Part shown: positions 1 to 64,000 of the stretch, piece after piece
Numbering within the stretch: the stretch's first letter is position 1
How the letters are laid out: each line of letters opens with the position of its first letter
Origin: Escherichia coli
GTDB lineage: Bacteria > Pseudomonadota > Gammaproteobacteria > Enterobacterales > Enterobacteriaceae
Assembly (NCBI RefSeq): GCF_044647545.1
Contig: NZ_CP172818.1
Strand: one strand, 5' to 3'
DNA: 64,000 nucleotides
Notes under the pieces: generated by a model
The model's input: only the letters and a program-made list of their open reading frames with translations
Database searches by the model: none
What the model was told of the DNA's origin: nothing
Made by a program: the position numbers and the translations under genes

Positions 1-286
1 GCAGCATCTCAACGAACTGACCTTACTGCGCCAGGCACGCCAGGTGGGCTTTAACCTGGAGGAGAGCGGCGAACTGGTGAATCTGTTTAACGATCCGCAG
101 CGTCATAGTGCCGACGTCAAACGTCGTACGCTGGAGAAGGTGGCGGAGATCGAACGGCATATCGAAGAACTGCAATCCATGCGCAACCAGCTACTGGCGC
201 TGGCGAATGCCTGCCCTGGCGATGACAGCGCCGACTGCCCGATTATCGAAAATCTCTCCGGCTGCTGTCATCATCGGGCGGGGTGA
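1..286 (+). CDS. cueR: Cu(I)-responsive MerR-family regulator CueR, C-terminal part (5-prime end outside window)
   Basis: Open frame reaches window start; C-terminal [14 protein letters not shown] metal-binding tail; followed by ybbJ-qmcA as in E. coli. Confidence 0.8.
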
Positions 287-756
287 TTAAAAGAAAAAAA
301 GGCGATGACCGCACGGATAATCAGCGTTATCCCTTCTATCGCAATCACCTCAACATGCGTACCTGCACTGAGATCCTCGCTGGCGCTGACAGGCCATGAA
401 CTGTCACCGACGCGCATATGACCACGCCCGTTGACCAGCGGAGATTCCAGAACAAAACGTCGGCCAATCAACTGCTGCCCGCGCTGGTTTAAATGACTGT
501 CGCTGTGCTTTTGTTCGCGCACCCGCCGCGACAACCATTTCCACCACAGCCAGGCGGCGAGCAGCGTCAGGACGGCAAACATTACCCCTTGCCACTCCCA
601 ACCCAGCGGCAGCAACCAGACCACCAGACCGGTAATCACCGCTGCCACGCCGCTCCACAACAGATAACCATTGCCGCCCAACATCTCGGCTGCCAGCAGC
701 AAACCGCCGAGACTTAGCCAGAAAATATGTGGATGAACGACCATTAACTCCATCAT
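271..756 (-). CDS. ybbJ: NfeD-like inner membrane protein
   Basis: 161-codon ORF, hydrophobic N-terminus; start overlaps qmcA stop (operon). Confidence 0.8.
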
Positions 757-1670
757 GGCTGAGTCCGTTTGTTGGCGCTGTCTTTCACCAGCTCGGCAAT
801 CCCGGCAATCGACCCCATCAGGCTGCTGGCCTCTAATGGCATCATCACTACTTTGCTGTTACTGGACGAACCGATCTGCTGTAACGCTTCGGTGTATTTC
901 TGTGCGACGAAGTAGTTCACCGCCTGAATATCACCGGAGGCAATGGCTTCAGATACCATTTTGGTGGCGCGGGCTTCTGCTTCGGCAGAACGTTCACGCG
1001 CTTCGGCCTGTAAGAATGCCGATTGACGTTCACCTTCCGCTTTCAGGATTTGCGACTGTTTTTCACCTTCAGCTTTGAGGATTTCCGCCTGACGGATCCC
1101 TTCCGCTTCAAGGATGTAAGCGCGTTTGGTACGTTCCGCTTTCATCTGCGCGTTCATTGAAGAGATAAGCTCTGCCGGTGGGCGCACGTCGCGAATTTCA
1201 ATACGGGTGACTTTAATCCCCCACGGGTTGGTGGCTTCATCGACAATACGCAGCAGGCGTGAGTTGATGCTGTCGCGCTGAGAGAGCATTTCGTCAAGTT
1301 CCATTGAACCCAGCACGGTACGGATGTTAGTCATGGTCAGGTTGATGATCGCCAGCTCCAGATTGCTGACTTCATAAGCCGCGCGCGGCGCGTCAATCAC
1401 CTGAATAAAGCACACGGCGTCGATGGTAACGTTGGCGTTATCTTTCGAGATAACTTCCTGGGAAGGGATATCGAGCACTTGCTCCATCATATTGATCTTG
1501 CGACCAATGCGATCCATAAACGGCACCACCAGACTGAGCCCCGGCTGTAACGTTTTGGTATAGCGACCAAAACGTTCTACTGTCCACTGATAGCCCTGCG
1601 GCACGATTTTGACGCCCGCGCCGACAATGACCAGCGCGACAAAAATGAGAATCGGGATAAAGATAAGCAT
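753..1670 (-). CDS. qmcA: SPFH/stomatin-family membrane protease modulator QmcA
   Basis: 305 aa ORF with N-terminal TM helix and SPFH domain plus charged coiled-coil tail. Confidence 0.9.
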
Positions 1671-1812
1671 CGGAAAAACCTCCTGTTGTACCGTCCATAA
1701 TCAGCAAAATTGCTGCTTGATTAAACAAATTATACCTGATTACTGAAAGAGAGTTCCCCCTTATTCCTGCGAAGGATAAACTGTTTTTAGTAAAAATCAG
1801 AAAAAGGGAACA

Positions 1813-2493
1813 GTGATGCAGGAAAATAGTCCTTTGCTTCAGCTACAAAACGTAGGATATCTGGCGGGTGATGCGAAGATTCTTAATAACATCAATTTTT
1901 CGCTGCGTGCTGGCGAATTTAAGTTAATTACCGGTCCTTCTGGTTGTGGCAAAAGTACGCTGCTAAAAATAGTTGCTTCATTGATCAGCCCAACCAGCGG
2001 AACGTTACTGTTTGAAGGTGAGGATGTCAGCACACTAAAGCCAGAAATCTACCGCCAGCAAGTCTCTTATTGCGCCCAGACGCCGACGCTGTTTGGCGAC
2101 ACGGTATACGATAATCTGATCTTTCCTTGGCAGATCCGTAACCAGCAGCCTGACCCAGCCATTTTTCTCGATTTTCTCGAACGCTTCGCCTTACCGGACA
2201 CCATTTTGACGAAGAATATCGCCGAGCTATCTGGTGGGGAAAAACAACGCATCTCATTGATTCGTAACCTGCAATTTATGCCGAAGGTTTTATTGCTGGA
2301 TGAAATAACCAGTGCGCTGGACGAAAGTAATAAACATAACGTTAATGAGATGATCCACCGTTATGTGCGCGAGCAAAATATTGCCGTGCTGTGGGTGACA
2401 CACGATAAAGACGAAATTAATCATGCGGATAAAGTGATTACACTGCAACCGCATGCCGGAGAAATGCAGGAAGCACGCTATGAACTCGCATAA
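1813..2493 (+). CDS. fetA: ABC transporter ATP-binding protein FetA
   Basis: Walker A GPSGCGKST and LSGGEKQR signature motifs. Confidence 0.85.
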   Translation: MMQENSPLLQLQNVGYLAGDAKILNNINFSLRAGEFKLITGPSGCGKSTLLKIVASLISPTSGTLLFEGEDVSTLKPEIYRQQVSYCAQTPTLFGDTVYDNLIFPWQIRNQQPDPAIFLDFLERFALPDTILTKNIAELSGGEKQRISLIRNLQFMPKVLLLDEITSALDESNKHNVNEMIHRYVREQNIAVLWVTHDKDEINHADKVITLQPHAGEMQEARYELA

Positions 2494-3259
2494 TATTACT
2501 AACGAATCATTAGCACTGGCATTGATGCTGGTGGTGGTGGCAATCTTAATTAGCCATAAAGAAAAACTGGCGCTGGAGAAAGATATTCTCTGGAGCGTCG
2601 GGCGCGCGATAATCCAGCTGATTATTGTCGGCTATGTGCTGAAGTATATTTTCAGCGTGGATGATGCCAGCCTGACATTATTGATGGTGTTATTTATCTG
2701 CTTTAATGCGGCGTGGAATGCGCAAAAACGCAGTAAATATATTGCTAAAGCTTTTATCTCATCGTTTATTGCCATTACGGTCGGGGCGGGAATTACCCTG
2801 GCGGTGCTGATTCTCTCAGGGTCGATTGAATTTATCCCGATGCAGGTGATCCCTATCGCCGGGATGATAGCCGGTAACGCCATGGTAGCGGTGGGGTTGT
2901 GTTACAACAATTTAGGGCAACGGGTGATTAGCGAACAGCAACAGATTCAGGAGAAACTGAGTCTTGGCGCGACGCCGAAACAGGCTTCAGCGATATTGAT
3001 TCGCGACAGTATTCGCGCTGCTTTAATTCCGACGGTCGATTCAGCAAAAACGGTAGGCTTAGTGAGTTTACCAGGAATGATGTCCGGGCTGATATTTGCC
3101 GGGATTGATCCGGTGAAGGCGATTAAATATCAGATTATGGTGACCTTTATGCTGCTCTCAACCGCCAGCCTGTCGACCATTATTGCCTGCTATTTAACCT
3201 ATCGTAAGTTTTACAATTCGCGCCACCAGTTGGTGGTGACGCAATTGAAGAAGAAATGA
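2480..3259 (+). CDS. fetB: ABC transporter permease FetB
   Basis: Polytopic membrane ORF overlapping fetA 3-prime end; start chosen at MNSHNIT. Confidence 0.8.
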   Translation: MNSHNITNESLALALMLVVVAILISHKEKLALEKDILWSVGRAIIQLIIVGYVLKYIFSVDDASLTLLMVLFICFNAAWNAQKRSKYIAKAFISSFIAITVGAGITLAVLILSGSIEFIPMQVIPIAGMIAGNAMVAVGLCYNNLGQRVISEQQQIQEKLSLGATPKQASAILIRDSIRAALIPTVDSAKTVGLVSLPGMMSGLIFAGIDPVKAIKYQIMVTFMLLSTASLSTIIACYLTYRKFYNSRHQLVVTQLKKK

Positions 3260-3265
3260 TGCAAT

Positions 3266-3291
3266 GCCGGATGCGCAGCATCGCATCCGGC
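3266..3291. terminator. REP-like GC hairpin between convergent fetB and ybbN
   Basis: Inverted repeat GCCGGATGCG/CGCATCCGGC with 6-nt loop. Confidence 0.4.
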
Positions 3292-3321
3292 GTTGTGGTT
3301 CATGTGCCGATCAACGGAAAC

Positions 3322-4218
<897 letters not shown>

Positions 4219-4236
4219 TTAAGCGCGCGCTTCAAC

Positions 4237-5046
4237 TCACCCCTGCAATATTTTGTCCATCACGCGCCCCGGCAGCAGGCGCTTAAGCACCATTACTGCC
4301 CAGGTCACCAGCGTTACCGGATAGCGCATCTTCGGCTTCTCGCTAATAAAAGCATGGCGCACTTTGTCGACCACCGCTTCCGGTCCTAACGTAAAGCGGG
4401 CGGCGATGCCGGGATTTTCGACTGGTTTATCACTTTGCGTCTGGTTGACGTTGTCGGTGAAGCGAGTACGAATGGGACCAGGTTCGATCAGGCTGACTTT
4501 AATTCCGCTGTGGCGCAGCTCCATGCGCAGTGCGTCTGACCACGCCTCCAGCGCATATTTACTGGCCGCGTAAGCGCCACGACCCGGTGTGGAGATTAAT
4601 CCCATCACCGATGAGGTCATCACAATACGCCCTTCACCGTGCGGCAACATCGCGGGTAACAGGCGCATGGTGAGCTGGTGTGCGCCGAAAAAGTTGGCGG
4701 AAAACTGCTGTTCCATCTGCGCACGGCTGATGGTGGAAAGGGGGCCATACATGCCGAATCCGGCATTGTTAAAGATCCCATACAGACAATTATCGGTCAG
4801 GGCGATCACTTCGTCGGCTGCGCGATCAACACATTCTGGCGAATCCAGATCGATCAACACGCCGGTAAATCCCATGCTGTTCATGCGCTCAACATCATCC
4901 GCTTTCCGGCAACCTGCCAGCACATGAAAACCCTGGCGTTTTAATTCGAGCGCGCTTTCCAGGCCAATTCCACTGGAACATCCGGTAATTAAGACCGATT
5001 TTTGCATAACTTTACCTGTCAGGATCTCCGTTGCTTTATGAGTCAT
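4237..5046 (-). CDS. ybbO: Short-chain dehydrogenase/reductase YbbO
   Basis: TGCSSGIG Rossmann motif and YAASK catalytic motif. Confidence 0.85.
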   Translation of the reverse strand: MTHKATEILTGKVMQKSVLITGCSSGIGLESALELKRQGFHVLAGCRKADDVERMNSMGFTGVLIDLDSPECVDRAADEVIALTDNCLYGIFNNAGFGMYGPLSTISRAQMEQQFSANFFGAHQLTMRLLPAMLPHGEGRIVMTSSVMGLISTPGRGAYAASKYALEAWSDALRMELRHSGIKVSLIEPGPIRTRFTDNVNQTQSDKPVENPGIAARFTLGPEAVVDKVRHAFISEKPKMRYPVTLVTWAVMVLKRLLPGRVMDKILQG

Positions 5047-5662
5047 GATTTACTAAAGGCTGCAACTGCTTCGCCATCCAGTCGGCAATAAACGGCTGGG
5101 CGTCGCGGTTGGGATGAATACCGTCATCCTGCATCCATTGTGGTTTGAGGTAGACCTCTTCCATAAAAAAGGGCAGCAGCGGAACATCAAACTCTTTGGC
5201 GAGTTTGGGGTAAATGGCGCTAAAGGCTTCATTATAACGGCGACCATAGTTTGCAGGCAGACGTATTTGCATTAACAATGGTTCAGCGTTGGTGGCTTTG
5301 ACCTCCTGCAAAATCTGGCGCAGCGTTTGCTCGGTTTGTTGTGGCTGAAAACCACGCAAACCGTCATTGCCGCCCAGTTCAACCAGCACCCAACGCGGCT
5401 GATGCTGTTTCAGCAGAGCCGGAAGGCGCGCCAGCCCTTGTTGCGAGGTGTCGCCGCTGATGCTGGCATTGACTACCGACGTTTTACTCTGCCACTTATC
5501 ATTCAACAAGGCAGGCCAGGCCGCGCTGGCAGACATTCGATACCCGGCGCTCAGGCTATCACCCAGAATCAATAACGTGTCCGCTGCAGCGGCACGGAAG
5601 GTTAACAGGACCAGGAACAGGAAGGGCAAATGCCAGCGGAAAACATTGTTGAAGTTCATCAT
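5036..5662 (-). CDS. tesA: Acyl-CoA thioesterase I / lysophospholipase L1 TesA (SGNH hydrolase)
   Basis: Signal peptide then GDSLSAGY SGNH motif; start chosen at MMNFNN. Confidence 0.9.
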   Translation of the reverse strand: MMNFNNVFRWHLPFLFLVLLTFRAAAADTLLILGDSLSAGYRMSASAAWPALLNDKWQSKTSVVNASISGDTSQQGLARLPALLKQHQPRWVLVELGGNDGLRGFQPQQTEQTLRQILQEVKATNAEPLLMQIRLPANYGRRYNEAFSAIYPKLAKEFDVPLLPFFMEEVYLKPQWMQDDGIHPNRDAQPFIADWMAKQLQPLVNHDS

Positions 5663-6312
5663 CTTAAGAAGTCCGTCGGTCAGGGGGAGCATGAACTCTC
5701 CATCCTCACCGGAGTTGAGCTGGTTGTCAAACGTGGCGAGACCATCGCGCTGGTGGGCGAGTCGGGATCGGGTAAGTCAACCTTGCTGGCGATCCTCGCC
5801 GGGCTGGATGACGGCAGCAGTGGCGAAGTAAATCTGGTGGGACAACCGCTACATAATATGGACGAAGAAGCGCGGGCAAAGTTACGCGCGAAGCACGTAG
5901 GTTTTGTTTTTCAGTCATTTATGTTAATTCCTACCCTTAACGCGCTGGAAAACGTCGAGCTTCCGGCGCTGCTGCGCGGTGAAAGTAGCGTGGAAAGTCG
6001 TAACGGGGCAAAAGCGTTGCTCGAACAGTTAGGACTGGGTAAACGTCTGGATCATCTTCCGGCACAGCTTTCCGGCGGCGAACAGCAACGAGTGGCGCTG
6101 GCGCGAGCTTTTAATGGTCGGCCTGATGTGCTGTTTGCCGACGAACCCACCGGCAATCTTGACCGCCAGACGGGCGATAAAATTGCCGACCTGCTGTTTT
6201 CCCTCAACCGTGAACATGGCACCACGTTGATTATGGTGACCCACGACCTGCAACTGGCGGCACGCTGCGACCGCTGCTTACGGCTGGTGAACGGGCAGTT
6301 GCAGGAGGAAGC

Positions 6313-6316
<4 letters not shown>
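5630..6316 (+). CDS. ybbA: ABC transporter ATP-binding protein YbbA
   Basis: Walker A GESGSGKST and LSGGEQQR motifs; divergent from tesA. Confidence 0.85.
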
Positions 6317-10182
<3,866 letters not shown>

Positions 10183-22090: not shown

Positions 22091-22876
22091 TTAAATCTCT
22101 ACGTCGCGGTTGCAATCTTTCGAGTAAATATAGCTGAACGCTTCACCACGCCCTACGCCATAACCAGCCTGTAAAGAATAAGCGCCCATAAAGATGTAAT
22201 CGCCTTTTTTCACCGGGATCCAGTTATTGTCGAGGTTATAAACCCCCTGACCGGAAAGAATATAGGCACCGTGTTCCTGAACGTGGGTTTCGATATAACC
22301 GTGGCTGGCACCTGGTGCAAAAGAGAGGATATGCATGTTCATATCAAAACCTAACTCTTTGGGCAGAAAATCCAGCAGAATAACATCGTCCATGCCTTCA
22401 TAATGAATGCGTTCCAGTTCGCTGGCATTGCCAGAAACCAGCCACGGCGCATGACCTTCGACCGGAATATAGCGACGCTTATATAAAAAGATTTGGCTGT
22501 CTTCGGCCTGGGCGTTAACAAACGTCATTAAGGAGCCTGGCGGGCAATAAAGATAGCCACCTTCACTTAAGGTAAATGTTTTCCCTTCGGCTTTGGCAGT
22601 GATATTTCCAGAGATCACATACAGGAACGTTTCAATTCCTTCACCACCGAAGCCCTGTTGGTTGCCGCCGTTTTGATGTAGTGTGACCAGATAATCAACA
22701 AAAGAGGCCCCCAGCTTTGGCGTGGAGAGGATTGTCGCGTCACAATTTTCAAAGCCCGGAATAATATTTTTTACCAGACCGTCCGGGGTTAGCAGCGCGA
22801 AATTACCGTGTTTCACAATCGCACGGTTAGCCAGTAAATCATCGCGGTAACCGGTGACGTTATTTAAATATCCCAT
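22091..22876 (-). CDS. allE: (S)-ureidoglycine aminohydrolase (cupin)
   Basis: 261 aa bicupin ORF upstream of allC in same orientation. Confidence 0.85.
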   Translation of the reverse strand: MGYLNNVTGYRDDLLANRAIVKHGNFALLTPDGLVKNIIPGFENCDATILSTPKLGASFVDYLVTLHQNGGNQQGFGGEGIETFLYVISGNITAKAEGKTFTLSEGGYLYCPPGSLMTFVNAQAEDSQIFLYKRRYIPVEGHAPWLVSGNASELERIHYEGMDDVILLDFLPKELGFDMNMHILSFAPGASHGYIETHVQEHGAYILSGQGVYNLDNNWIPVKKGDYIFMGAYSLQAGYGVGRGEAFSYIYSKDCNRDVEI

Positions 22877-43597: not shown

Positions 43598-43674
43598 GCG
43601 CCCTTAGCTCAGTTGGATAGAGCAACGACCTTCTAAGTCGTGGGCCGCAGGTTCGAATCCTGCAGGGCGCGCCA
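43598..43674 (+). tRNA. argU: tRNA-Arg (anticodon UCU)
   Basis: Cloverleaf GCGCCCTTAGCTCAGTTGGATAGAGC...GGTTCGAATCC...GCGCCA; anticodon loop CTTCTAA. Confidence 0.9.
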
Positions 43675-54653: not shown

Positions 54654-56110
54654 TTAGTGAAGTCATTTTTGTCAAGCAGGTTGATTTTGTAATCAACGAA
54701 AGTAGACATATTTTTGTTGAAGTAATAGGTTGCACCTACATCAACATATTTGACTAAGTCCTGATCGCCCCATACTCCAAGATCCTTACCTTTAGATTGC
54801 AGGTAAGCAACGGACGGACGCAGACCGAAATCGAACTGATATTGTGCAACAGCTTCGAAGTTTTGGGCTTTATTAGCAACGAAGTGATCAGCAAATACAG
54901 TCATATTCTGGGTTTCAGAATAGGTAGTGGCCAGGTAAATGTTGTTAGCGTCATATTTCAGACCTGCGGCCCAAACTTCTGCATTTTTACCGGAAGCAAA
55001 TACTTCAGGAAGAACTTTCCCTGCATTAACTTGAGTGTCGGTACGATCAGATTTCGCATAAGTTGCACCGATACCGAATCCTTCGTATTCATAGGTAGCA
55101 GAGAAACCGAAGCCATCACCGTTACCTTCAGTGTAGTTATCGAAATCGCTACGATCGTTTTTGCCTTGGTACTGAATCGCAAAATCAAGACCATCAACCA
55201 GGCCAAGAAATCATAGTTACGGTAGGTTGCAACACCGTTGGTACGACCATTCATGAAGTTGTCAGCGGAAGCCCAGGAATCGCCACCCCATTCAACTAAC
55301 ATATCGGTATAAGCTGCGGCATCATAAGCAACACCGTAGTTACGGCCATAGTCAAATGACCACTCGTTATATTTCAAACCGGCGAAGGTTAAACGGGTTT
55401 TTTCCTGGTTTTCACCTTCGGGCTTGCTGGCGTCGAGGTTGTATTCAAACTGACCAAAACCAGTCAGTTCGCTGGTGATTTGGGTTTCACCTTTGAAGCC
55501 AAGACGGGCATAAGTAGTATCACCATCATCTGCATCATTAGAGGAGAAGTAGTGCTTAGCATTAACTTTCCCGTACAGATCCAGCTTGTTACTGTCTTTA
55601 TTATAAATTTCAGCTGCCTGAGCAGACATCGCCATTAGTACTGATGCAGCTACAGCAGAAATTGCCACTGTTAATTTTTTCATCGTGAGCCCTTTTTTTG
55701 AACTATTATTAAAAAATGATGTCACTGCGCGATAAATATTCATCTAATCAATGTGATTATTTCAAGATGTAAGTTTTGGTTTCTCGTTTGATTTGTGAAG
55801 TAGATCTCTATTTTTATCTGAACTTTTTTCTATCGAATCCTATTCATGGCTCTTGGCTGAATAAAAATAAATCTATTAGCCAATTTATATTAACGGCTGT
55901 TATTTATAAGTGCTCTATAATTTGAAGGTTCAATTTAAACCGGCTAAAAATAACACTGGAAATTATTTTTTGGTTATTTGTTGAGATTTGCTTATGTATT
56001 TGTAGTGGTGTTTTCAATACTCGGTAGCATTCTCTCAAATATCATTTAGTGGTTTACGTACGTAAAAAATTGGTTATGCTGTTAAGAGTGGTTACTTCGT
56101 CACACAGCTT

Positions 56111-56140
56111 AAACCCGCCGTCGAGCGGGTTTTTCCATTT
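56111..56140 (+). terminator. tR-prime-like terminator upstream of holin gene
   Basis: AAACCCGC-CGTCGA-GCGGGTTT followed by T run. Confidence 0.5.
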
Positions 56141-56258
56141 TTTGAGTCTCGATATTAGCTGATAACCCAATACCTGAGTTATTCACTGACTCCGAGTCTG
56201 TTACGTTTCGTAGTATTCCCTCAATTTACACCCATCCGTTATTTGCGGAGGTGAGGCT

Positions 56259-56474
56259 ATGAAATCCATGGATAAGTTAACAACGGGCATTGCCTACGGC
56301 ACCTCCGCAGGCAGTGCTGGCTACTGGTTTTTACAGCTGCTCGATAAAGTCACGCCCTCACAGTGGGCAGCAATAGGTGTGCTGGGTAGCTTGGTATTTG
56401 GCCTGCTGACGTACCTGACAAACCTTTATTTCAAGATTAAAGAAGATAAGCGCAAGGCTGCGAGAGGTGAATAA
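56259..56474 (+). CDS. essD: Class I holin (lambda S-like)
   Basis: 71 aa small TM protein heading the lysis cassette. Confidence 0.9.
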
Positions 56475-56971
56475 TGCCTCCATCATTACGAAAAGCCGTT
56501 GCTGCTGCTATTGGTGGCGGAGCAATTGCTATAGCATCAGTGTTAATCACTGGCCCAAGTGGTAACGATGGTCTGGAAGGTGTCAGCTACATACCATACA
56601 AAGATATCGTTGGCGTATGGACTGTATGTCACGGGCATACAGGAAAAGACATCATTCCCGGTAAAACGTATACCGAAGCAGAATGCAAAGCCCTCCTGAA
56701 TAAAGACCTTGCCACGGTAGCCAGACAAATTAACCCGTACATCAAAGTCGATATACCGGAAACAACGCGCGGCGCTCTTTACTCGTTCGTCTATAACGTG
56801 GGCGCAGGCAATTTCAGAACATCTACTCTTCTTCGCAAAATAAACCAGGGCGATATCAAGGGCGCATGTGACCAGCTACGTCGCTGGGCATACGCTGGCG
56901 GTAAGCAATGGAAAGGCCTGATGACTCGTCGTGAGATTGAGCGTGAGGTCTGTTTGTGGGGGCAACAATGA
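56474..56971 (+). CDS. rrrD: Phage lysozyme (T4 e-like endolysin)
   Basis: 165 aa ORF with glycoside hydrolase 24 catalytic E...D...T region. Confidence 0.9.
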
Positions 56972-57342
56972 GCAGAGTCACCGCGATTATCTCCGCTCTG
57001 GTTATCTGCATCATCGTCTGCCTGTCATGGGCTGTTAATCATTACCGTGATAACGCCATCGCCTACAAAGAACAGCGCGATAAAAAAGTCAGTGAGCTGA
57101 AGCAGGCGACCGCCACCATTACTGACATGCAGCAGCGCCAGCGTGATGCTGATGCACTCGATGCTAAATACACGAAGGAGTTAGCTGATGCGAAAGCTGA
57201 AAATGATGCTCTTCGGCGCAAGCTTGATAATGGTGGTCGGGTGCTCGTCAAAGGAAAATGCCCTGTGCCATCCTCAGCCGAAACCTCCAGCGCCTCCGGC
57301 ATGGGCAATGATGCCACCGTCGAACTCAAAGACCGAGAATAA
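56968..57342 (+). CDS. rzpD: Rz-like spanin (i-spanin), apparently truncated by frameshift
   Basis: [32 protein letters not shown]-terminus as in lambda Rz; frame stops after 124 codons. Confidence 0.7.
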
Positions 57343-57663: not shown

Positions 57664-57919
57664 GATAATGGTTTATACCCTACACGGGATAACTTAACTG
57701 ATATCCCTTTTAAAGGATAAAGGTATTCAAGCCTGACACATCATGCGCTGTATCGTCGCCGTATTCCCGTATTAACAGAGACCGTAGCCCGACGGGGAAC
57801 TCCTTCTGCGCGAGTGTGCGGGAATAATCAAAAACGATGCACACCGGGGTTACCGGGTACACATATTTCATCATGCCAGCGAGTCCGGTTCTGGCACGGA
57901 AGAAACCGGACGTTATGAT

Positions 57920-58330
57920 TTAGTGCGGAAATATTTGTGTAGTGTTCTGAATGTTCTCAGTAAAGAGTAATGAATTATCAAAGGTATAGTAATACCTTTT
58001 GTTTTCGTGGATATTTGTAATCCATCTGAAAACCCCTGCTGTAGCAAGATTTTTCCTGTATTCGTAAAATGATAACTCTCCTGATTTGAATCCTTTTAAG
58101 GTGGCTTCTATAAGGCATTTATTTTTTGAAAATCTTACATTTACAACCTTACCCTGTCCTTTTATTAAAACCGTATTATCGTTTTCAAGAACAAGATGAA
58201 TATTCTCTGTAGCTAAATAGTAAATGTAATGTGAGACATTGTGACGTTTTAGTTCAGAATAAAACCAGTGATAGTTTAAATTATTTCGCACTTTATCGAA
58301 TATTTGTTTAAAAATGGCAACCTGAGCCAT
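57920..58330 (-). CDS. ybcV: DUF1398-family prophage protein
   Basis: [21 protein letters not shown]... Confidence 0.75.
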
Positions 58331-58662
58331 TGTGGTACCTTCCATGTGATATGAGGGGCGTAGTCTGCACGATTATCTAAATTGCTTCAATCTGGTCTGA
58401 TTTTTGAGAATTTAAATAAGCAGATTAGAAGGGAAACGCTGAAATTCATGTTGTTTTCAATAAACAAAGAATGGACGAAAAATCATAAAGACAATACTGC
58501 CAGGACAGGTTAAAAACTATCTTAATACACATTCGATGGTTAGATGTTTAATCATGTATAGAACATCATACCTAAAATACTAAAAGCAAAAGAAACGAAG
58601 GAATCCTCTATAATTAATCTATCAAAGAAGAGAATACGTATCTGACTAAGAGACTAATCAAC

Positions 58663-58896
58663 TCAGCAATCCTCGTATTTAGGGAATACAATACGTCCAG
58701 TGTCACTCTTTTCTTTGTTTGCTTCAGGAGAAACTCTTTTTTCTGAGCACAGTCTCCGGCGGCAGGCTTCAATGACCCAGGCTGAGAAATTCCCGGACCC
58801 TTTTTGATCAAGAGCGATGTTAATTTGTTCAATCATTTGGTTAGGAAAGCGGATGTTGCGGATTGTTGTTCTGCGGGTTCTGTTCTTCGTTGACAT
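58663..58896 (-). CDS. ylcI: DUF3950-family small protein
   Basis: ORF MSTKNRTRRTTIRNIRFPNQMIEQINIALDQKGSGNFSAWVIEACRRR. Confidence 0.65.
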   Translation of the reverse strand: MSTKNRTRRTTIRNIRFPNQMIEQINIALDQKGSGNFSAWVIEACRRRLCSEKRVSPEANKEKSDTGRIVFPKYEDC

Positions 58897-59079
58897 GAGG
58901 TTGTCCCGTATTTAGTGTCGCTGATTTGTATTGTCTGAAGTTGTTTTTACGTTAAGTTGATGCAGATCAATTAATATGATACCTGCGTCATAATTGATTA
59001 TTTGACGTGGTTTGATGGCGTAGATGCACGTTGTGACATGCAGATGATAATTATTATCATTTTGCGGGTCCTTTCCGGC

Positions 59080-59284
59080 GATCCGACAGGTTACGGGGCG
59101 GCGACCTCGCGGGTTTTCGCTATTTATGAAAAATTTCCGGTTTAAGGCGTTTCCGTTCTTCTTCGTCATAACTTAATGTTTTTATTTAAAATACCCTCTG
59201 AAAAGAAAGGAAACGACAGGTGCTGAAAGCGAGCTTTTTGGCCTCTGTCGTTTCCTTTCTCTGTTTTTGTCCGTGGAATGAACA
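59080..59284 (+). other. Lambda-type cos region: cosN (GGGCGGCGACCT at 59096-59107) and cosB upstream of Nu1
   Basis: Sequence matches remembered lambda left-end and right-end junction ...CGACAGGTTACG|GGGCGGCGACCTCGCGGGTTTTCGCTATTTATGAAAA. Confidence 0.8.
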
Positions 59285-59830
59285 ATGGAAGTCAACAAAA
59301 AGCAGCTGGCTGACATTTTCGGTGCGAGTATCCGTACCATTCAGAACTGGCAGGAACAGGGAATGCCCGTTCTGCGAGGCGGTGGCAAGGGTAATGAGGT
59401 GCTTTATGACTCTGCCGCCGTCATAAAATGGTATGCCGAAAGGGATGCTGAAATTGAGAACGAAAAGCTGCGCCGGGAGGTTGAAGAACTGCGGCAGGCC
59501 AGCGAGGCAGATCTCCAGCCAGGAACTATTGAGTACGAACGCCATCGACTTACGCGTGCGCAGGCCGACGCACAGGAACTGAAGAATGCCAGAGACTCCG
59601 CTGAAGTGGTGGAAACCGCATTCTGTACTTTCGTGTTGTCGCGGATCGCAGGTGAAATTGCCAGTATTCTCGACGGGCTCCCCCTGTCGGTGCAGCGGCG
59701 TTTTCCGGAACTGGAAAACCGACATGTTGATTTCCTGAAACGGGATATTATCAAAGCCATGAACAAAGCAGCCGCGCTGGATGAACTGATACCGGGGTTG
59801 CTGAGTGAATATATCGAACAGTCAGGTTAA
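59285..59830 (+). CDS. nohD: Terminase small subunit (Nu1 homolog)
   Basis: 181 aa [39 protein letters not shown], matching remembered lambda Nu1. Confidence 0.9.
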
Positions 59831-60548
59831 CAGGCTGCGGCATTTTGTCCGCGCCGGGCTTCGCTCACTGTTCAGGCCGGAGCCACAGACCGCCGTTGAA
59901 TGGGCGGATGCTAATTACTATCTCCCGAAAGAATCCGCATACCAGGAAGGGCGCTGGGAAACACTGCCCTTTCAGCGGGCCATCATGAATGCGATGGGCA
60001 GCGACTACATCCGTGAGGTGAATGTGGTGAAGTCTGCCCGTGTCGGTTATTCCAAAATGCTGCTGGGTGTTTATGCCTACTTTATAGAGCATAAGCAGCG
60101 CAACACCCTTATTCCAGCTGGCTTCGTGGCTGTTTTCAACAGTGATGAGTCATCGTGGCATCTCGTTGAAGATCATCGGGGTAAAACGGTTTATGACGTA
60201 GCGTCAGGGGACGCGTTATTTATTTCTGAACTCGGTCCGTTACCGGAAAATGTTACCTGGTTATCGCCGGAAGGGGAGTTTCAGAAGTGGAACGGTACAG
60301 CCTGGGTGAAAGATGCAGAAGCAGAAAAACTGTTCCGGATTCGGGAGGCGGAAGAAACAAAAAACAGCCTGATGCAGGTAGCCAGTGAGCATATTGCGCC
60401 ACTTCAGGATGCTGTAGATCTGGAAATCGCAACGGAGGAAGAAACCTCATTGCTGGAAGCCTGGAAAAAATATCGGGTGTTGCTGAACCGTGTTGATACA
60501 TCAACTGCACCTGATATTGAGTGGCCTACGAACCCTGTCAGGGAGTAA
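59805..60548 (+). pseudogene. aaaD: Fusion of terminase large subunit N-terminus (lambda A) to tail fiber assembly C-terminus
   Basis: [19 protein letters not shown]... (A N-term) switches near 60110 to Tfa-like sequence ending [17 protein letters not shown]... Confidence 0.75.
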
Positions 60549-60602
60549 TCATTGGGATTATGCCGCAGCACGTCTTAAGCAAGAACATGCTGCGGTTGGA
60601 TG

Positions 60603-61187
60603 CTATTTTTTTCCTGAAGCGGAAAACATTACTACAGTACCTTGAACCTTGGTTTTAACATTCTCGAAATGCTCTGAGAGTATATGTGTTAAGCCTTCTT
60701 CGGAATCTTTTGTGTTTGAAAAGATGCCTTTCTGATTGTAAATGCGCATCAGTTTTTGACCGAAGCTATTGTGCACAACTCCATCGCCAAGAATTGTGGC
60801 TCCGTATAGAGTTCCATCGTCAGTTAAGGCCTGCGCCGCATTGCGTATTACACAGCTTTTTGTAGATATATTTCCAGGCAGGCAGTGAAGAAGGTAAGAC
60901 ATGGAAATGGAATCAAATTGACCATGTAACGCCGCGGGATAAGGTTCAAAAACATCATGGCTAATTTTATGTTTAATTTTTGATTCCCCAGCCCTTGTAG
61001 ATGCCGCGTTCAGGCTAGCTTCGTTCAAATCCATTAAAGATATCAGACTACTCTCAGGTACGTGAGTAAGGTAAAACCCAGTTCCAACACCAATATCCAG
61101 ATGGTTGTTACCTAAATGTTCCAGAAAGTGTGGAAGAAGGTGTTCCTTTGTAGGACATCCCCATGCAAGCCGATTTGATACTCCCAA
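60603..61187 (-). CDS. ybcY: SAM-dependent methyltransferase-like protein (possibly truncated)
   Basis: ORF with methyltransferase motif LDIGVGTGF. Confidence 0.7.
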   Translation of the reverse strand: MGVSNRLAWGCPTKEHLLPHFLEHLGNNHLDIGVGTGFYLTHVPESSLISLMDLNEASLNAASTRAGESKIKHKISHDVFEPYPAALHGQFDSISMSYLLHCLPGNISTKSCVIRNAAQALTDDGTLYGATILGDGVVHNSFGQKLMRIYNQKGIFSNTKDSEEGLTHILSEHFENVKTKVQGTVVMFSASGKK

Positions 61188-61325
61188 AACCCACCAGTCA
61201 TAAAGCTTTAGGGTAAGTGGTGTGTAAATTCTAGCCCCATCATCTGTGTTTTTTTATTAATTTCACCATGTTATAGTTTTATTTGTGAATTAAATCAATT
61301 ATGGCAATGAATTACAAGGGGTTAA

Positions 61326-61586
61326 ATGCTGCCGCAGCATAGCGATATTGAAATAGCCTGGTATGCTTCAATACAGCAGGAGCCGAATGGCTGGAAGACC
61401 GTCACCACACAGTTCTACATCCAGGAATTCAGTGAGTATATTGCGCCACTGCAGGATGCTGTAGATCTGGAAATCGCAACGGAGGAAGAAAACTCGTTGC
61501 TGGAAGCCTGGAAAAAGTATCGGGTGCTGCTAAACCGTGTGGACACTTCCGTAGCACCAGATATCGAGTGGCTTATTCAACCATAA
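61326..61586 (+). pseudogene. tfaX: Tail fiber assembly protein C-terminal fragment
   Basis: 86-codon ORF whose C-terminal ~50 residues repeat the aaaD tail. Confidence 0.7.
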
Positions 61587-62131
61587 TAAACAGTATGTAT
61601 ATCATAGGTTATTAATTGTGAGTTTTTTCGGTGTGTTATTTGTTTGTTTGATGTTATGCTTTTGCGCCCCAAAAGGTTGTTTAGATGTATTTTATCAATT
61701 GATTTTCAATGTCGTTTAATAAAGAAAAATTAAGCAAGCTGGATGTTGGTTTTTTGTTAATTGAATGGTTCTAATAATGTTTTTTTACTGTTGTTGAATG
61801 TGACTTGATAAGAAATGCAAGTAAAAATGATACTCTTTTTATTTTAAATTCAAACGGTTGACATATATATAGCAAGAGGTTTCAGGTGCGTTGTAGTGAG
61901 TTTATGTTAATAAAAAGTATAGTAAGCGTTGAAAAATGTAACTTTGAAATACGTTAGAATAAAAAACAATATACATATAATAATTTAATCTTAAATGAAA
62001 TTTATTAAAATTTGCAAACTATAATTTTGTGTATAAAAATATAAATGCACATCATCCTGATTATGATTGTGTATTTAATTGGTTGTTATTTGACTGCTAT
62101 CAACTTGTTTTAATTTTATGATAGGTGCAAG

Positions 62132-62881
62132 ATGGATTATGTTTGCTCCGTAGTTTTCATCTGTCAATCATTTGATTTAATTATAAACAGGAGAGTTATC
62201 TCGTTCAAAAAAAATTCATTGTTTATTGTAAGCGACAAAATTAGAAGGGAGTTACCAGTATGCCCCTCTAAACTAAGAATTGTTGATATAGATAAGAAAA
62301 CATGTTTATCCTTTTTTATCGACGTGAATAATGAGCTGCCTGGCAAATTTACTCTTGATAAGAATGGCTATATTGCTGAAGAGGAACCTCCATTATCGCT
62401 TGTTTTTTCTCTGTTTGAAGGGATTAAAATAGCAGACTCACACTCCCTTTGGTTAAAAGAAAGACTATGTATATCCTTACTTGCCATGTTCAAAAAACGC
62501 GAAAGTGTAAATTCATTTATACTAACAAATATAAATACATTTACCTGTAAAATTACTGGAATAATCAGTTTTAATATTGAGCGGCAATGGCATTTAAAAG
62601 ATATTGCGGAATTGATTTATACGAGTGAAAGTTTAATAAAAAAAAGATTAAGGGATGAAGGAACGTCATTTACTGAAATATTGAGAGATACTAGGATGAG
62701 GTATGCAAAAAAACTCATAACTTCAAACTCTTATTCTATCAATGTCGTAGCCCAGAAATGTGGCTATAACAGTACTTCATATTTCATATGTGCATTTAAA
62801 GATTATTATGGTGTCACGCCATCTCATTATTTTGAGAAAATAATCGGCGTCACAGATGGAATAAACAAAACAATTGACTGA
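62132..62881 (+). CDS. appY: AraC-family regulator AppY
   Basis: 249 aa ORF with C-terminal AraC HTH, AT-rich codon usage. Confidence 0.9.
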
Positions 62882-63129
62882 TAATGTTTATTACAAGTTG
62901 CCTACATGTTAATTATAATATTATACAGCGTTTTTTTGATGTGATATTCTGGAACCATTAATTTGTAATTGGGTTGCTGTCGCCTATTTTATACATGCTA
63001 TAATTGATGGTTTTCTATGTGATTTAGTTAATAACCTTCTGGGTTTATTTTAAGGGTTAATTGTTACATTGAAATGGCTAGTTATTCCCCGGGGCGATTG
63101 TCACCTCGGGGAAATTTTAGTTGGCGTTC

Positions 63130-64000
63130 TTAAAATGTGTACTTAAGACCAGCAGTAGTGATGAAGTTATAGTTTTCTATGCCTGCACCATTTTTGCTGT
63201 AGTCTGAAGTGTTATCATTGTGATCATAAAGTGAAGTATTACCTTTTTTATTCGTAACCCGATTCCATGCGCCTTCAACATAAACTTTTGCGTTAGGTGT
63301 TACGTAATAACCTGCATTGACTGCAACAGAATAGTAATTTTGGTCTTTGACTTTACTGCGATAAGTGATTCTTTTTCCTGGGTCATAGTGCTCATCGTTA
63401 TCAGATGCTTCCACCCAGCCGCTGTATTTAAATGTGCCACCTAGCTCAAAATCTTCATAACGATAACTTCCAGTCAAGCCAATGTAGGGCATTTTAAAAC
63501 GTTGTTTGTAGCCGATTGCTCTTTCTCCATTCGGGAAGGAGCCGATATCATCTCTGAATCCCTCCTCAGAACTGTAGATATAGGAACCACCTCTGGCTGT
63601 AAAGCTATAACGGCTTTCCTGATATCCGGCCATGAGTCCCAGGCGGTAATTGGGTTCGTTGAGGAGCCAGCCTTTGATATTCAGATCAAATTCGTTGGCA
63701 TAATTGAGTTGTGTATCAGGGTGCCTACTTTCATCTGTCCAGGTTCCGGGGTTACTGGAATCCATCCAGTCCTGATCGACCATATTGCCACCTCGGCTGC
63801 CGAGAGTAGTCCAGCCCGCAGCCCCAATAGATATCTGGGGCATCAAATCCCAATTAATTGCACCTTTAATAATTGCAGCGTTATTGAATTTCCAGTCGAG
63901 TTGACTGACTTTTCGGCCTCCTTCTTCGGCTAGATAAACACGCTCTTTTGTTTTTCCGCTCAGAGTTCCAAGACTAATGTCCGCATTTATGTTGTCAGGA
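63130..64000 (-). CDS. ompT: Outer membrane protease OmpT (omptin), 3-prime portion; 5-prime end beyond window
   Basis: C-terminus ...YNFITTAGLKYTF and omptin beta-barrel sequence; frame open to window end. Confidence 0.9.
   Translation of the reverse strand, partial: PDNINADISLGTLSGKTKERVYLAEEGGRKVSQLDWKFNNAAIIKGAINWDLMPQISIGAAGWTTLGSRGGNMVDQDWMDSSNPGTWTDESRHPDTQLNYANEFDLNIKGWLLNEPNYRLGLMAGYQESRYSFTARGGSYIYSSEEGFRDDIGSFPNGERAIGYKQRFKMPYIGLTGSYRYEDFELGGTFKYSGWVEASDNDEHYDPGKRITYRSKVKDQNYYSVAVNAGYYVTPNAKVYVEGAWNRVTNKKGNTSLYDHNDNTSDYSKNGAGIENYNFITTAGLKYTF

Follow-up and report, generated by a model that had tools for sequence, protein, structure and literature searches.

The window analysed here, a stretch of 64,000 nucleotides from the Escherichia coli contig NZ_CP172818.1, carries toward its right end the genes nohD, aaaD, tfaD, ybcY and tfaX (Table 1), downstream of an argU gene (tRNA-Arg tct) at 43598-43674. 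The same features in the same order make up part of the cryptic prophage DLP12 of strain MG1655 (NC_000913.3, 580834-584430; nohD-aaaD-tfaD-ybcY-tfaX-appY), whose annotation lists nohD, aaaD (pseudogene), tfaD, ybcY (pseudogene), tfaX, appY and ompT. The arrangement is thus already annotated in MG1655, and the locus is the right end of DLP12 in a strain other than K-12. Comparison over 59200-62100 revealed 19 differences from MG1655 (11 in nohD and 8 from 61492 onward) and no indels, the segment 59750-61491 being identical in both (100% over 1,742 nt). In contrast, the upstream lysis region of the window is only 83-92% identical to that of MG1655. None of the complete RefSeq genomes is identical over 59200-62100, with a top match of 99.6%.

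Table 1. Features of the nohD-tfaX region, in window coordinates.
Feature	Position	Strand	Evidence or remark
cos region of the prophage	59096..59284	+	window 59096 aligns with lambda nucleotide 1 (blastn)
nohD, Nu1-type small terminase subunit, intact	59285..59830	+	ORF; Pfam Phage_Nu1, E=2.5e-100; annotated nohD in MG1655
aaaD, first ~102 codons of lambda-type large terminase subunit (gpA), pseudogene fragment	59805..60112	+	Pfam GpA_ATPase, residues 47-102
Deletion joint terminase A/tfa	60110..60112	+	3-nt microhomology TAT, in frame
tfaD, lambda-like tail fibre assembly gene lacking its ~48 first codons	60110..60548	+	90.4% to lambda; Caudo_TAP
Repeat copy A	60372..60528	+	conserved Tfa C-terminal domain coding sequence; 3' end of tfaD
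40-nt identical block, copy A	60405..60444	+	ends in ACGGAGGAAGAA (codons T-E-E-E); putative crossover site
Hairpin between convergent tfaD and ybcY	60562..60596		folding: -22.7 kcal/mol, z -2.3
ybcY, class I SAM-dependent methyltransferase pseudogene	60603..61269	-	Pfam Methyltransf_12/23/25/11; phrog_2132
Divergent ybcY/tfaX spacer	61270..61325		RpoD genomic-SELEX peak; weak minus-strand promoter-like match
tfaX ORF, 86 codons: ~31 non-Tfa codons fused to last ~55 codons of a tfa	61326..61586	+	ORF, Pfam, phrog
Repeat copy B	61419..61575	+	within tfaX
40-nt identical block, copy B	61452..61491	+	window diverges from MG1655 rightward from 61492

In the window, aaaD and tfaD form a single continuous ORF of 247 codons (59805-60548), in which Pfam recognises GpA_ATPase at residues 47-102 and Caudo_TAP (PF02413) at residues 125-244. 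The aaaD part covers positions 3-60 of the 247 in the GpA_ATPase profile, and the complete ATPase and nuclease domains were not encountered; the tfaD part reaches 153.4 bits against Caudo_TAP (83.3 bits for tfaX; cut-off 22.1). By blastn, 59096-60112 corresponds to lambda 1-1018 with 99.6% identity and 60110-60597 to lambda 22119-22608 with 90.4% identity. Identity to lambda A does not extend past lambda nucleotide 1018, and tfaD starts at about nucleotide 147 of lambda tfa, which leaves the two-domain Tfa incomplete. Between terminase A' and tfaD, ~21.1 kb of head and tail genes (lambda coordinates) are absent. The joint was placed by a three-way comparison of lambda A, lambda tfa and the intact tfa genes of loci L002 (strain 2013C-4538) and L008, and agrees with the match boundaries in other genomes at query 913/911. 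The stf gene is absent from the window, where terminase A' adjoins tfa, whereas stf and tfa are adjacent in related intact prophages and phages. Altogether, two domains in one ORF and some 21 kb missing relative to lambda uphold the original prediction of a terminase N-terminus/Tfa chimera created by a large deletion. That prediction placed the first repeat copy in aaaD, which holds in so far as the ORF is continuous; in the MG1655 nomenclature, however, the copy belongs to tfaD (b0561), and aaaD (b4634) denotes the upstream terminase fragment alone.

Lambda and the window have in common cos, nu1, A' and a tfa with its trailing hairpin. The hairpin at 60562-60596 falls in the lambda-homologous stretch and also lies 3' of tfa in lambda; a scan of 60300-62200 for consensus terminators returned no call, this hairpin included. 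Compared to the window, lambda retains the intervening 21 kb and carries ea47 after the hairpin instead of ybcY and a second tfa piece.

Compared to the intact 222-aa allele of strain 2013C-4538, the methyltransferase gene ybcY lacks 2 nt at codon 5, between 61255 and 61256, and MG1655 ybcY bears the identical lesion. Its product scores 37.8 bits against Methyltransf_12 (cut-off 30) and exceeds the respective cut-offs of three more related families, and the glycine-rich SAM motif LDIGVGTG is visible in the translation. The matching family phrog_2132 is labelled “unknown function”. Searches of intact YbcY against PADLOC, NCBIfam and PDB sequences gave marginal matches only, from which no function could be assigned: PADLOC mad2 at E=0.003, UbiG and juvenile-hormone-acid methyltransferases at E ~1e-3, and NCBIfam models far under their cut-offs.

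The tfa sequence has a G+C content of ~49%, compared to 41-43% for the ybcY cassette and 24-33% around appY. For the spacer between ybcY and tfaX, an RpoD genomic-SELEX peak with an H-NS site is listed (PMC3946193). The spacer also holds one weak promoter-like match on the minus strand, although such matches are no commoner in 60300-62200 than in shuffled sequences. Moreover, prophages at the same locus occur both with and without ybcY. The low G+C content, the RpoD peak and the presence/absence polymorphism together identify the ybcY cassette as a phage moron, or cargo, with deviant composition and its own transcription signals. The 10-mer TGCCGCAGCA is found only at the two edges of the cassette (60561 and 61330), a pattern that recurred in 2 of 100 shuffles and is probably due to chance. 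An 80-nt fragment between ybcY and tfa' that PGAP assigns to the “DinI family” in strain 167 was dropped as a candidate, the minus strand of 61270-61440 having no convincing DinI-like frame.

A repeat search of 58000-64000 revealed one pair of direct repeats of 157 nt with 87% identity, their starts 1047 nt apart, and no further repeat longer than 30 nt. Self-comparison of the region by blastn recovered the same pair, 60372-60528 and 61419-61575, with 21 mismatches and no gaps (86.6%, E=1.2e-51). The longest perfect run is the 40-nt block listed in Table 1 (60405-60444 equals 61452-61491), followed by runs of 20 nt and 13 nt, and within the window ACGGAGGAAGAA occurs at the two copies only. 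In the pairwise alignment, similarity sets in abruptly at ...CAGTGAG and runs to both stop codons, whereas upstream of copy B there is no resemblance to tfa. Both copies are in frame, match Caudo_TAP and encode the C-terminal ~52 residues of Tfa proteins, of which about 45 of 51 are identical as counted from the translations. The mismatches fall mostly on third codon positions (4, 5 and 12 at positions 1, 2 and 3, respectively), a pattern consistent with the divergence of two alleles under protein constraint. The direct repeats of Tfa C-terminal coding sequence originally predicted are therefore real, with the coordinates and peptides correct, an identity above the limit of about 80% set for them, and the oppositely oriented ybcY between them. 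The copies are indeed similar, yet “near-identical” overstates an identity of 87%.

We surveyed 5,426 complete E. coli genomes, requiring at least 80% coverage on joined BLAST pieces, so that all counts are approximate. The ybcY cassette (60598-61418) was found in 3,797 genomes (~70%), the tfa-3'/ybcY-3' junction in 3,788, the ybcY-5'/tfa' junction in 3,443 and the full K-12-type arrangement in 361. In strain 2013C-4538, the equivalent locus beside ompT-envY-ybcH-nfrA reads J-lom-stf-tfa-ybcY-tfa'-hydrolase-ompT, with an intact ybcY. The order J-lom-stf-tfa-ybcY(intact)-tfa' recurs in the phage record PhiR26_1, one of five (with PhiR29_1/2, PhiR30_1 and 204576) that cover at least 96% of window 60112-61590; the records 2G7b and ev243 cover ~75% of it, including ybcY and tfa'. 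P2-like prophages near smpB read tail fibre-tfa-ybcY-tfaX'-dinI. Other loci depart further from the K-12 type: in strain JNEC-KY175, a fibre gene of the S74 type and a 126-nt tfa' are followed by catalase genes, ybcY, tfa' and appY; in E. coli B (L004), another fibre module is fused to a 111-nt tfa' beside appY, without ybcY; and strain 95-3322 has only argU-int'-'tfa-ybcY-ompT. Across strains, the region holding ybcY also carries appY, ompT, hydrolase, pin or catalase genes. The tfa-ybcY-tfa' module is widespread and not peculiar to this prophage, and its presence in intact prophages, phage genomes and P2-like prophages shows it to be older than the decay of DLP12.

Strain IBS28 reads stf-tfa-pin-ydfK-ynaM-ybcY-tfa', with a recombinase gene between tfa and ybcY. 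This might recall the invertible tail-fibre host-range switches of the Mu G, P1 C and e14 P type, which carry two tfa-like genes and of which the two pieces here could be remnants. However, a second tail-fibre C-terminus is absent, and no recombinase lies between nohD and appY in the MG1655 annotation or in the ORF list of the window for that interval. The copies are moreover direct rather than inverted, which contradicts a segment of the Gin/Cin/Pin type; such an origin is extremely improbable, and we rejected it.

The direct orientation and the short spacing of 1047 nt would also fit a recent local duplication in DLP12, to which unequal exchange in the course of decay, for instance, could have given rise. 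Against this stand the 87% identity of the copies, compared to 100% between the window and MG1655 over 1,742 nt that include copy A, the unrelated sequence upstream of copy B, and the same diverged pair flanking ybcY in intact prophages, phages and P2-like elements. Given the divergence and the occurrence of the pair outside DLP12, a recent duplication was likewise rejected as having next to no likelihood. Instead, the repeat very probably consists of the DNA that encodes the conserved C-terminal domain in two different tfa alleles, brought side by side by phage recombination rather than by duplication within the prophage.

Tfa chaperones combine an N-terminal domain that binds the fibre and is variable with a helical C-terminal domain that is conserved (PMC9608196, citing North et al. 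2019). The repeat corresponds to the conserved C-terminal domain of these modular chaperones, with upstream regions that differ and an occurrence in both lambdoid and P2-like elements. Compared to working modular chaperones, the conserved segment at this locus is a stand-alone relic at the boundary of a cargo cassette.

Multiple alignment of the loci demonstrated that the left part of copy B and the promoter side of ybcY are common among them, and that to the right of the 40-nt block the sequence changes with the downstream neighbour (appY, an alpha/beta hydrolase gene or potB). The tfa' fragments of L004, L005, L012 and L011 start at or near ACGGAGGAAGAA, the end of the block. This clustering of breakpoints at TEEE is drawn from a handful of loci, some of which are related by descent (the joint is the same in L005 and L012), and amounts to about four independent joints.

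Homologous recombination needs a minimal processing segment of ~25-30 bp. The two copies have the direct orientation of a deletion substrate, and their 40-nt perfect run is longer than that segment. We built the predicted crossover product by joining 60112-60444 to 61492-61800, and nine genomes matched it over its full length as a single piece, each with one tfa beside appY and without ybcY. The two of the nine that were inspected, EM18-18-42 and SFE8, are complete prophages at the same locus in which J-lom-stf-tfa is followed directly by appY. The tfa sequence of EM18-18-42 matches, over 412 nt and at 100% identity, the left part of MG1655 copy A joined to the right part of copy B and its downstream flank. 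It includes the TGA of MG1655 tfaX, and PGAP flags an internal stop. As this tfa equals the predicted product, recombination at the repeat has happened in nature, whether as a deletion or an insertion. The earlier proposal that the repeats can support homologous deletion is thus supported by the perfect block and by the nine single-tfa genomes, one of them the predicted product. No deletion product was found among the 361 genomes with the K-12-type arrangement; a divergence of 13%, together with mismatch repair, should make such an event rare.

The direction of this exchange could be the reverse, with a cassette-free single tfa beside appY as the ancestral state and the K-12 type arising by homologous insertion of a tfa-3'-ybcY segment. 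In SFE8, an intact tfa whose last ~45 nt are of the copy-B type ends in ...LIQP and adjoins appY; it has the appearance of an ancestral tfaX before disruption. The ybcY side of copy B, moreover, is common to phages that differ in the right part of the copy and in the downstream cargo, as an insertion would predict. Nevertheless, the tfa of EM18-18-42 bears the exact nonsense codon of MG1655 tfaX in a tail region that is otherwise complete, and such a codon is more easily understood as a relic mutation brought into tfa by deletion. Because the TGA of MG1655 tfaX is present in it, the EM18-18-42 sequence favours a deletion from an MG1655-type arrangement, and we consider the insertion history possible though rather unlikely. 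Insertion and deletion use the same crossover, so the choice between them changes the history and leaves the mechanism as it is.

The tfaX ORF covers positions 75-130 only of the Caudo_TAP profile, and we treated it as the relic of a tfa 3' end. It could also be read as a functional small “mini-Tfa”, consisting of the C-domain only, equipped with a start codon, a ribosome-binding site and a promoter of its own, and maintained beside ybcY in a divergent cassette of two genes. In agreement with such a protein, the whole of tfaX aligns with the 88-residue family phrog_2341 (E=1.6e-57), many records of E. coli and Shigella contain ORFs of 86-108 residues that share its N-terminus, at identities as low as ~77%, AAGGGG lies 5 nt upstream of the ATG, and an RpoD-binding peak is listed in the spacer. 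Yet when the 36 non-Tfa codons are compared with diverged copies, synonymous changes do not predominate (3 synonymous and 5-7 non-synonymous codons, the changes being spread evenly over codon positions), and the Tfa-derived part, with 18 synonymous and 6 non-synonymous changes relative to L016, has only 13 and 11 relative to L013. In addition, the ORF is interrupted by stops in CY708, strain 167 and MG1655, where TGA replaces the TGG kept in the window (61 compared to 86 codons), its 3' end varies with the neighbouring gene, and many shorter fragments exist. A functional tfaX is accordingly quite improbable.

A further proposal is that the last 110-160 nt of tfa are not only a side effect of protein conservation but form a recurrent, possibly selected recombination “linker” with breakpoints at the purine-rich ACGGAGGAAGAA, or that the phrog_2341 ORFs are working mini-chaperones made of the C-domain only. 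We regard it as improbable, and the codon analysis above argues against its mini-chaperone part. If true, the linker would swap tail-fibre cassettes on the left and cargo cassettes on the right between lambdoid and P2-like phages.

Tail-fibre genes are exchanged horizontally among unrelated phages. We propose that conserved Tfa C-terminal DNA would provide islands of identity among alleles that are otherwise different, and that homologous recombination at these islands may swap tail-fibre modules leftward and cargo rightward; the same process could excise ybcY. In the preferred reading, that of two tfa alleles, copy A is the end of a lambda-like tfa, and copy B, in tfaX, the 3' relic of another tfa, with which a small cargo (“moron”) cassette ends on its right side; the ybcY of this cassette is convergent with tfa and divergent from tfaX. 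Complete phages of the lambdoid and P2-like kinds already had the whole tfa-ybcY-tfa' module before the decay of DLP12. Later, an illegitimate deletion of ~21 kb at the 3-nt microhomology fused terminase A at codon ~102 to tfa at codon ~49, and then, or separately, the 2-nt deletion inactivated ybcY. Given the aaaD/tfaD fusion, the ybcY frameshift and the tfaX relic, no functional protein is expected from 59805-61586.

The repeat is thus confirmed, and it belongs to the common side products of the exchange of tail-fibre modules. The locus itself, a decayed and already annotated prophage end, carries little weight, and to its annotation the analysis adds only where exactly the deletion joint lies, how widely the module is distributed and that natural recombinants at the 40-nt block exist. 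It nevertheless exemplifies how a conserved chaperone domain can supply identity islands for module exchange between phages, how relic gene ends can mark the boundaries of cargo cassettes, and how cryptic prophages can decay by illegitimate in-frame deletions. The practical point concerns ybcY, an uncharacterised methyltransferase gene whose cassette occurs in about 70% of the complete E. coli genomes as well as in temperate phage genomes that have been deposited.

Comparison of the window with E. coli MG1655 revealed a tract of 1,742 nt (59750–61491) with 100% identity, bordered by diverged sequence on both sides. In the left flank compared (59281–59749), nohD has 11 differing sites; in the right flank (61492–62096) there are eight, the first of which lies exactly at 61492. 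This is the base directly following the 40-nt block in copy B, the perfect run that the tfaX repeat shares with copy A at the tfaD 3′ end. The tfaX gene itself has three differences against MG1655, two of which (61493 C and 61511 G) match the copy-A state. Judged from the sequence, the onset of differences at 61492 looks like the boundary of a recombination tract at the 40-nt block.

In the lysis region and farther upstream, the prophage shares just 92% (54868–57212) and 83% (57744–58400) identity with DLP12 of MG1655, and thus the window strain is not K-12. Despite this different background, the terminase-tfa deletion is common to the two strains.

Other decayed forms occupy the same locus in E. 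coli B and strain 95-3322. In E. coli B (1930–5281 of the compared locus), the internal deletion is unlike that of K-12: the gene of the small terminase subunit is followed by a TipJ fragment devoid of its N-terminus, and tail-fibre genes missing in K-12 are kept. E. coli B and K-12 therefore represent separate lines of decay, both starting from a more complete prophage. In strain 95-3322 (3875–6859), the site harbors a minimal prophage remnant: argU is followed by part of an integrase gene, 375 nt of tfa, ybcY and then ompT. This piece of tfa carries an internal deletion that preserves the reading frame and ends at the ACGGAGGAAGAA motif. In phage PhiR26_1 (PV340555.1, 6706–9330), an alpha/beta hydrolase gene and ompT, which encodes an omptin, are located directly downstream of the 3′ tfa relic; therefore, OmpT appears to be cargo in a deposited phage genome as well as a DLP12 remnant.

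A ybcY copy downstream of a tailspike-type gene was found in Logan contig ERR163860 (5630–6247), with an internal deletion corresponding to 60812–61199 of the window. One half of this copy is 98% identical to the window, whereas the other is only 87% identical, which indicates mosaicism within the ybcY cassette itself.

The 10-mer TGCCGCAGCA occurs just twice in the 64 kb, at both edges of the ybcY cassette. Two matches were also obtained in 2 of 100 shuffles, so this pairing is possibly due to chance. The small ORF at the tfaD end is most likely a spurious call. In other genomes, its counterpart carries the PGAP label “nucleocapsid protein” or “hypothetical protein”.

Features at the edges of the ybcY cassette
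Feature	Coordinates	Position
TGCCGCAGCA, copy 1	60561–60570	inside the hairpin directly after tfaD
TGCCGCAGCA, copy 2	61330–61339	inside palindromic ATGCTGCCGCAGCAT, at the start codon of tfaX
45-codon ORF	60521–60658	overlaps the tfaD end and the hairpin
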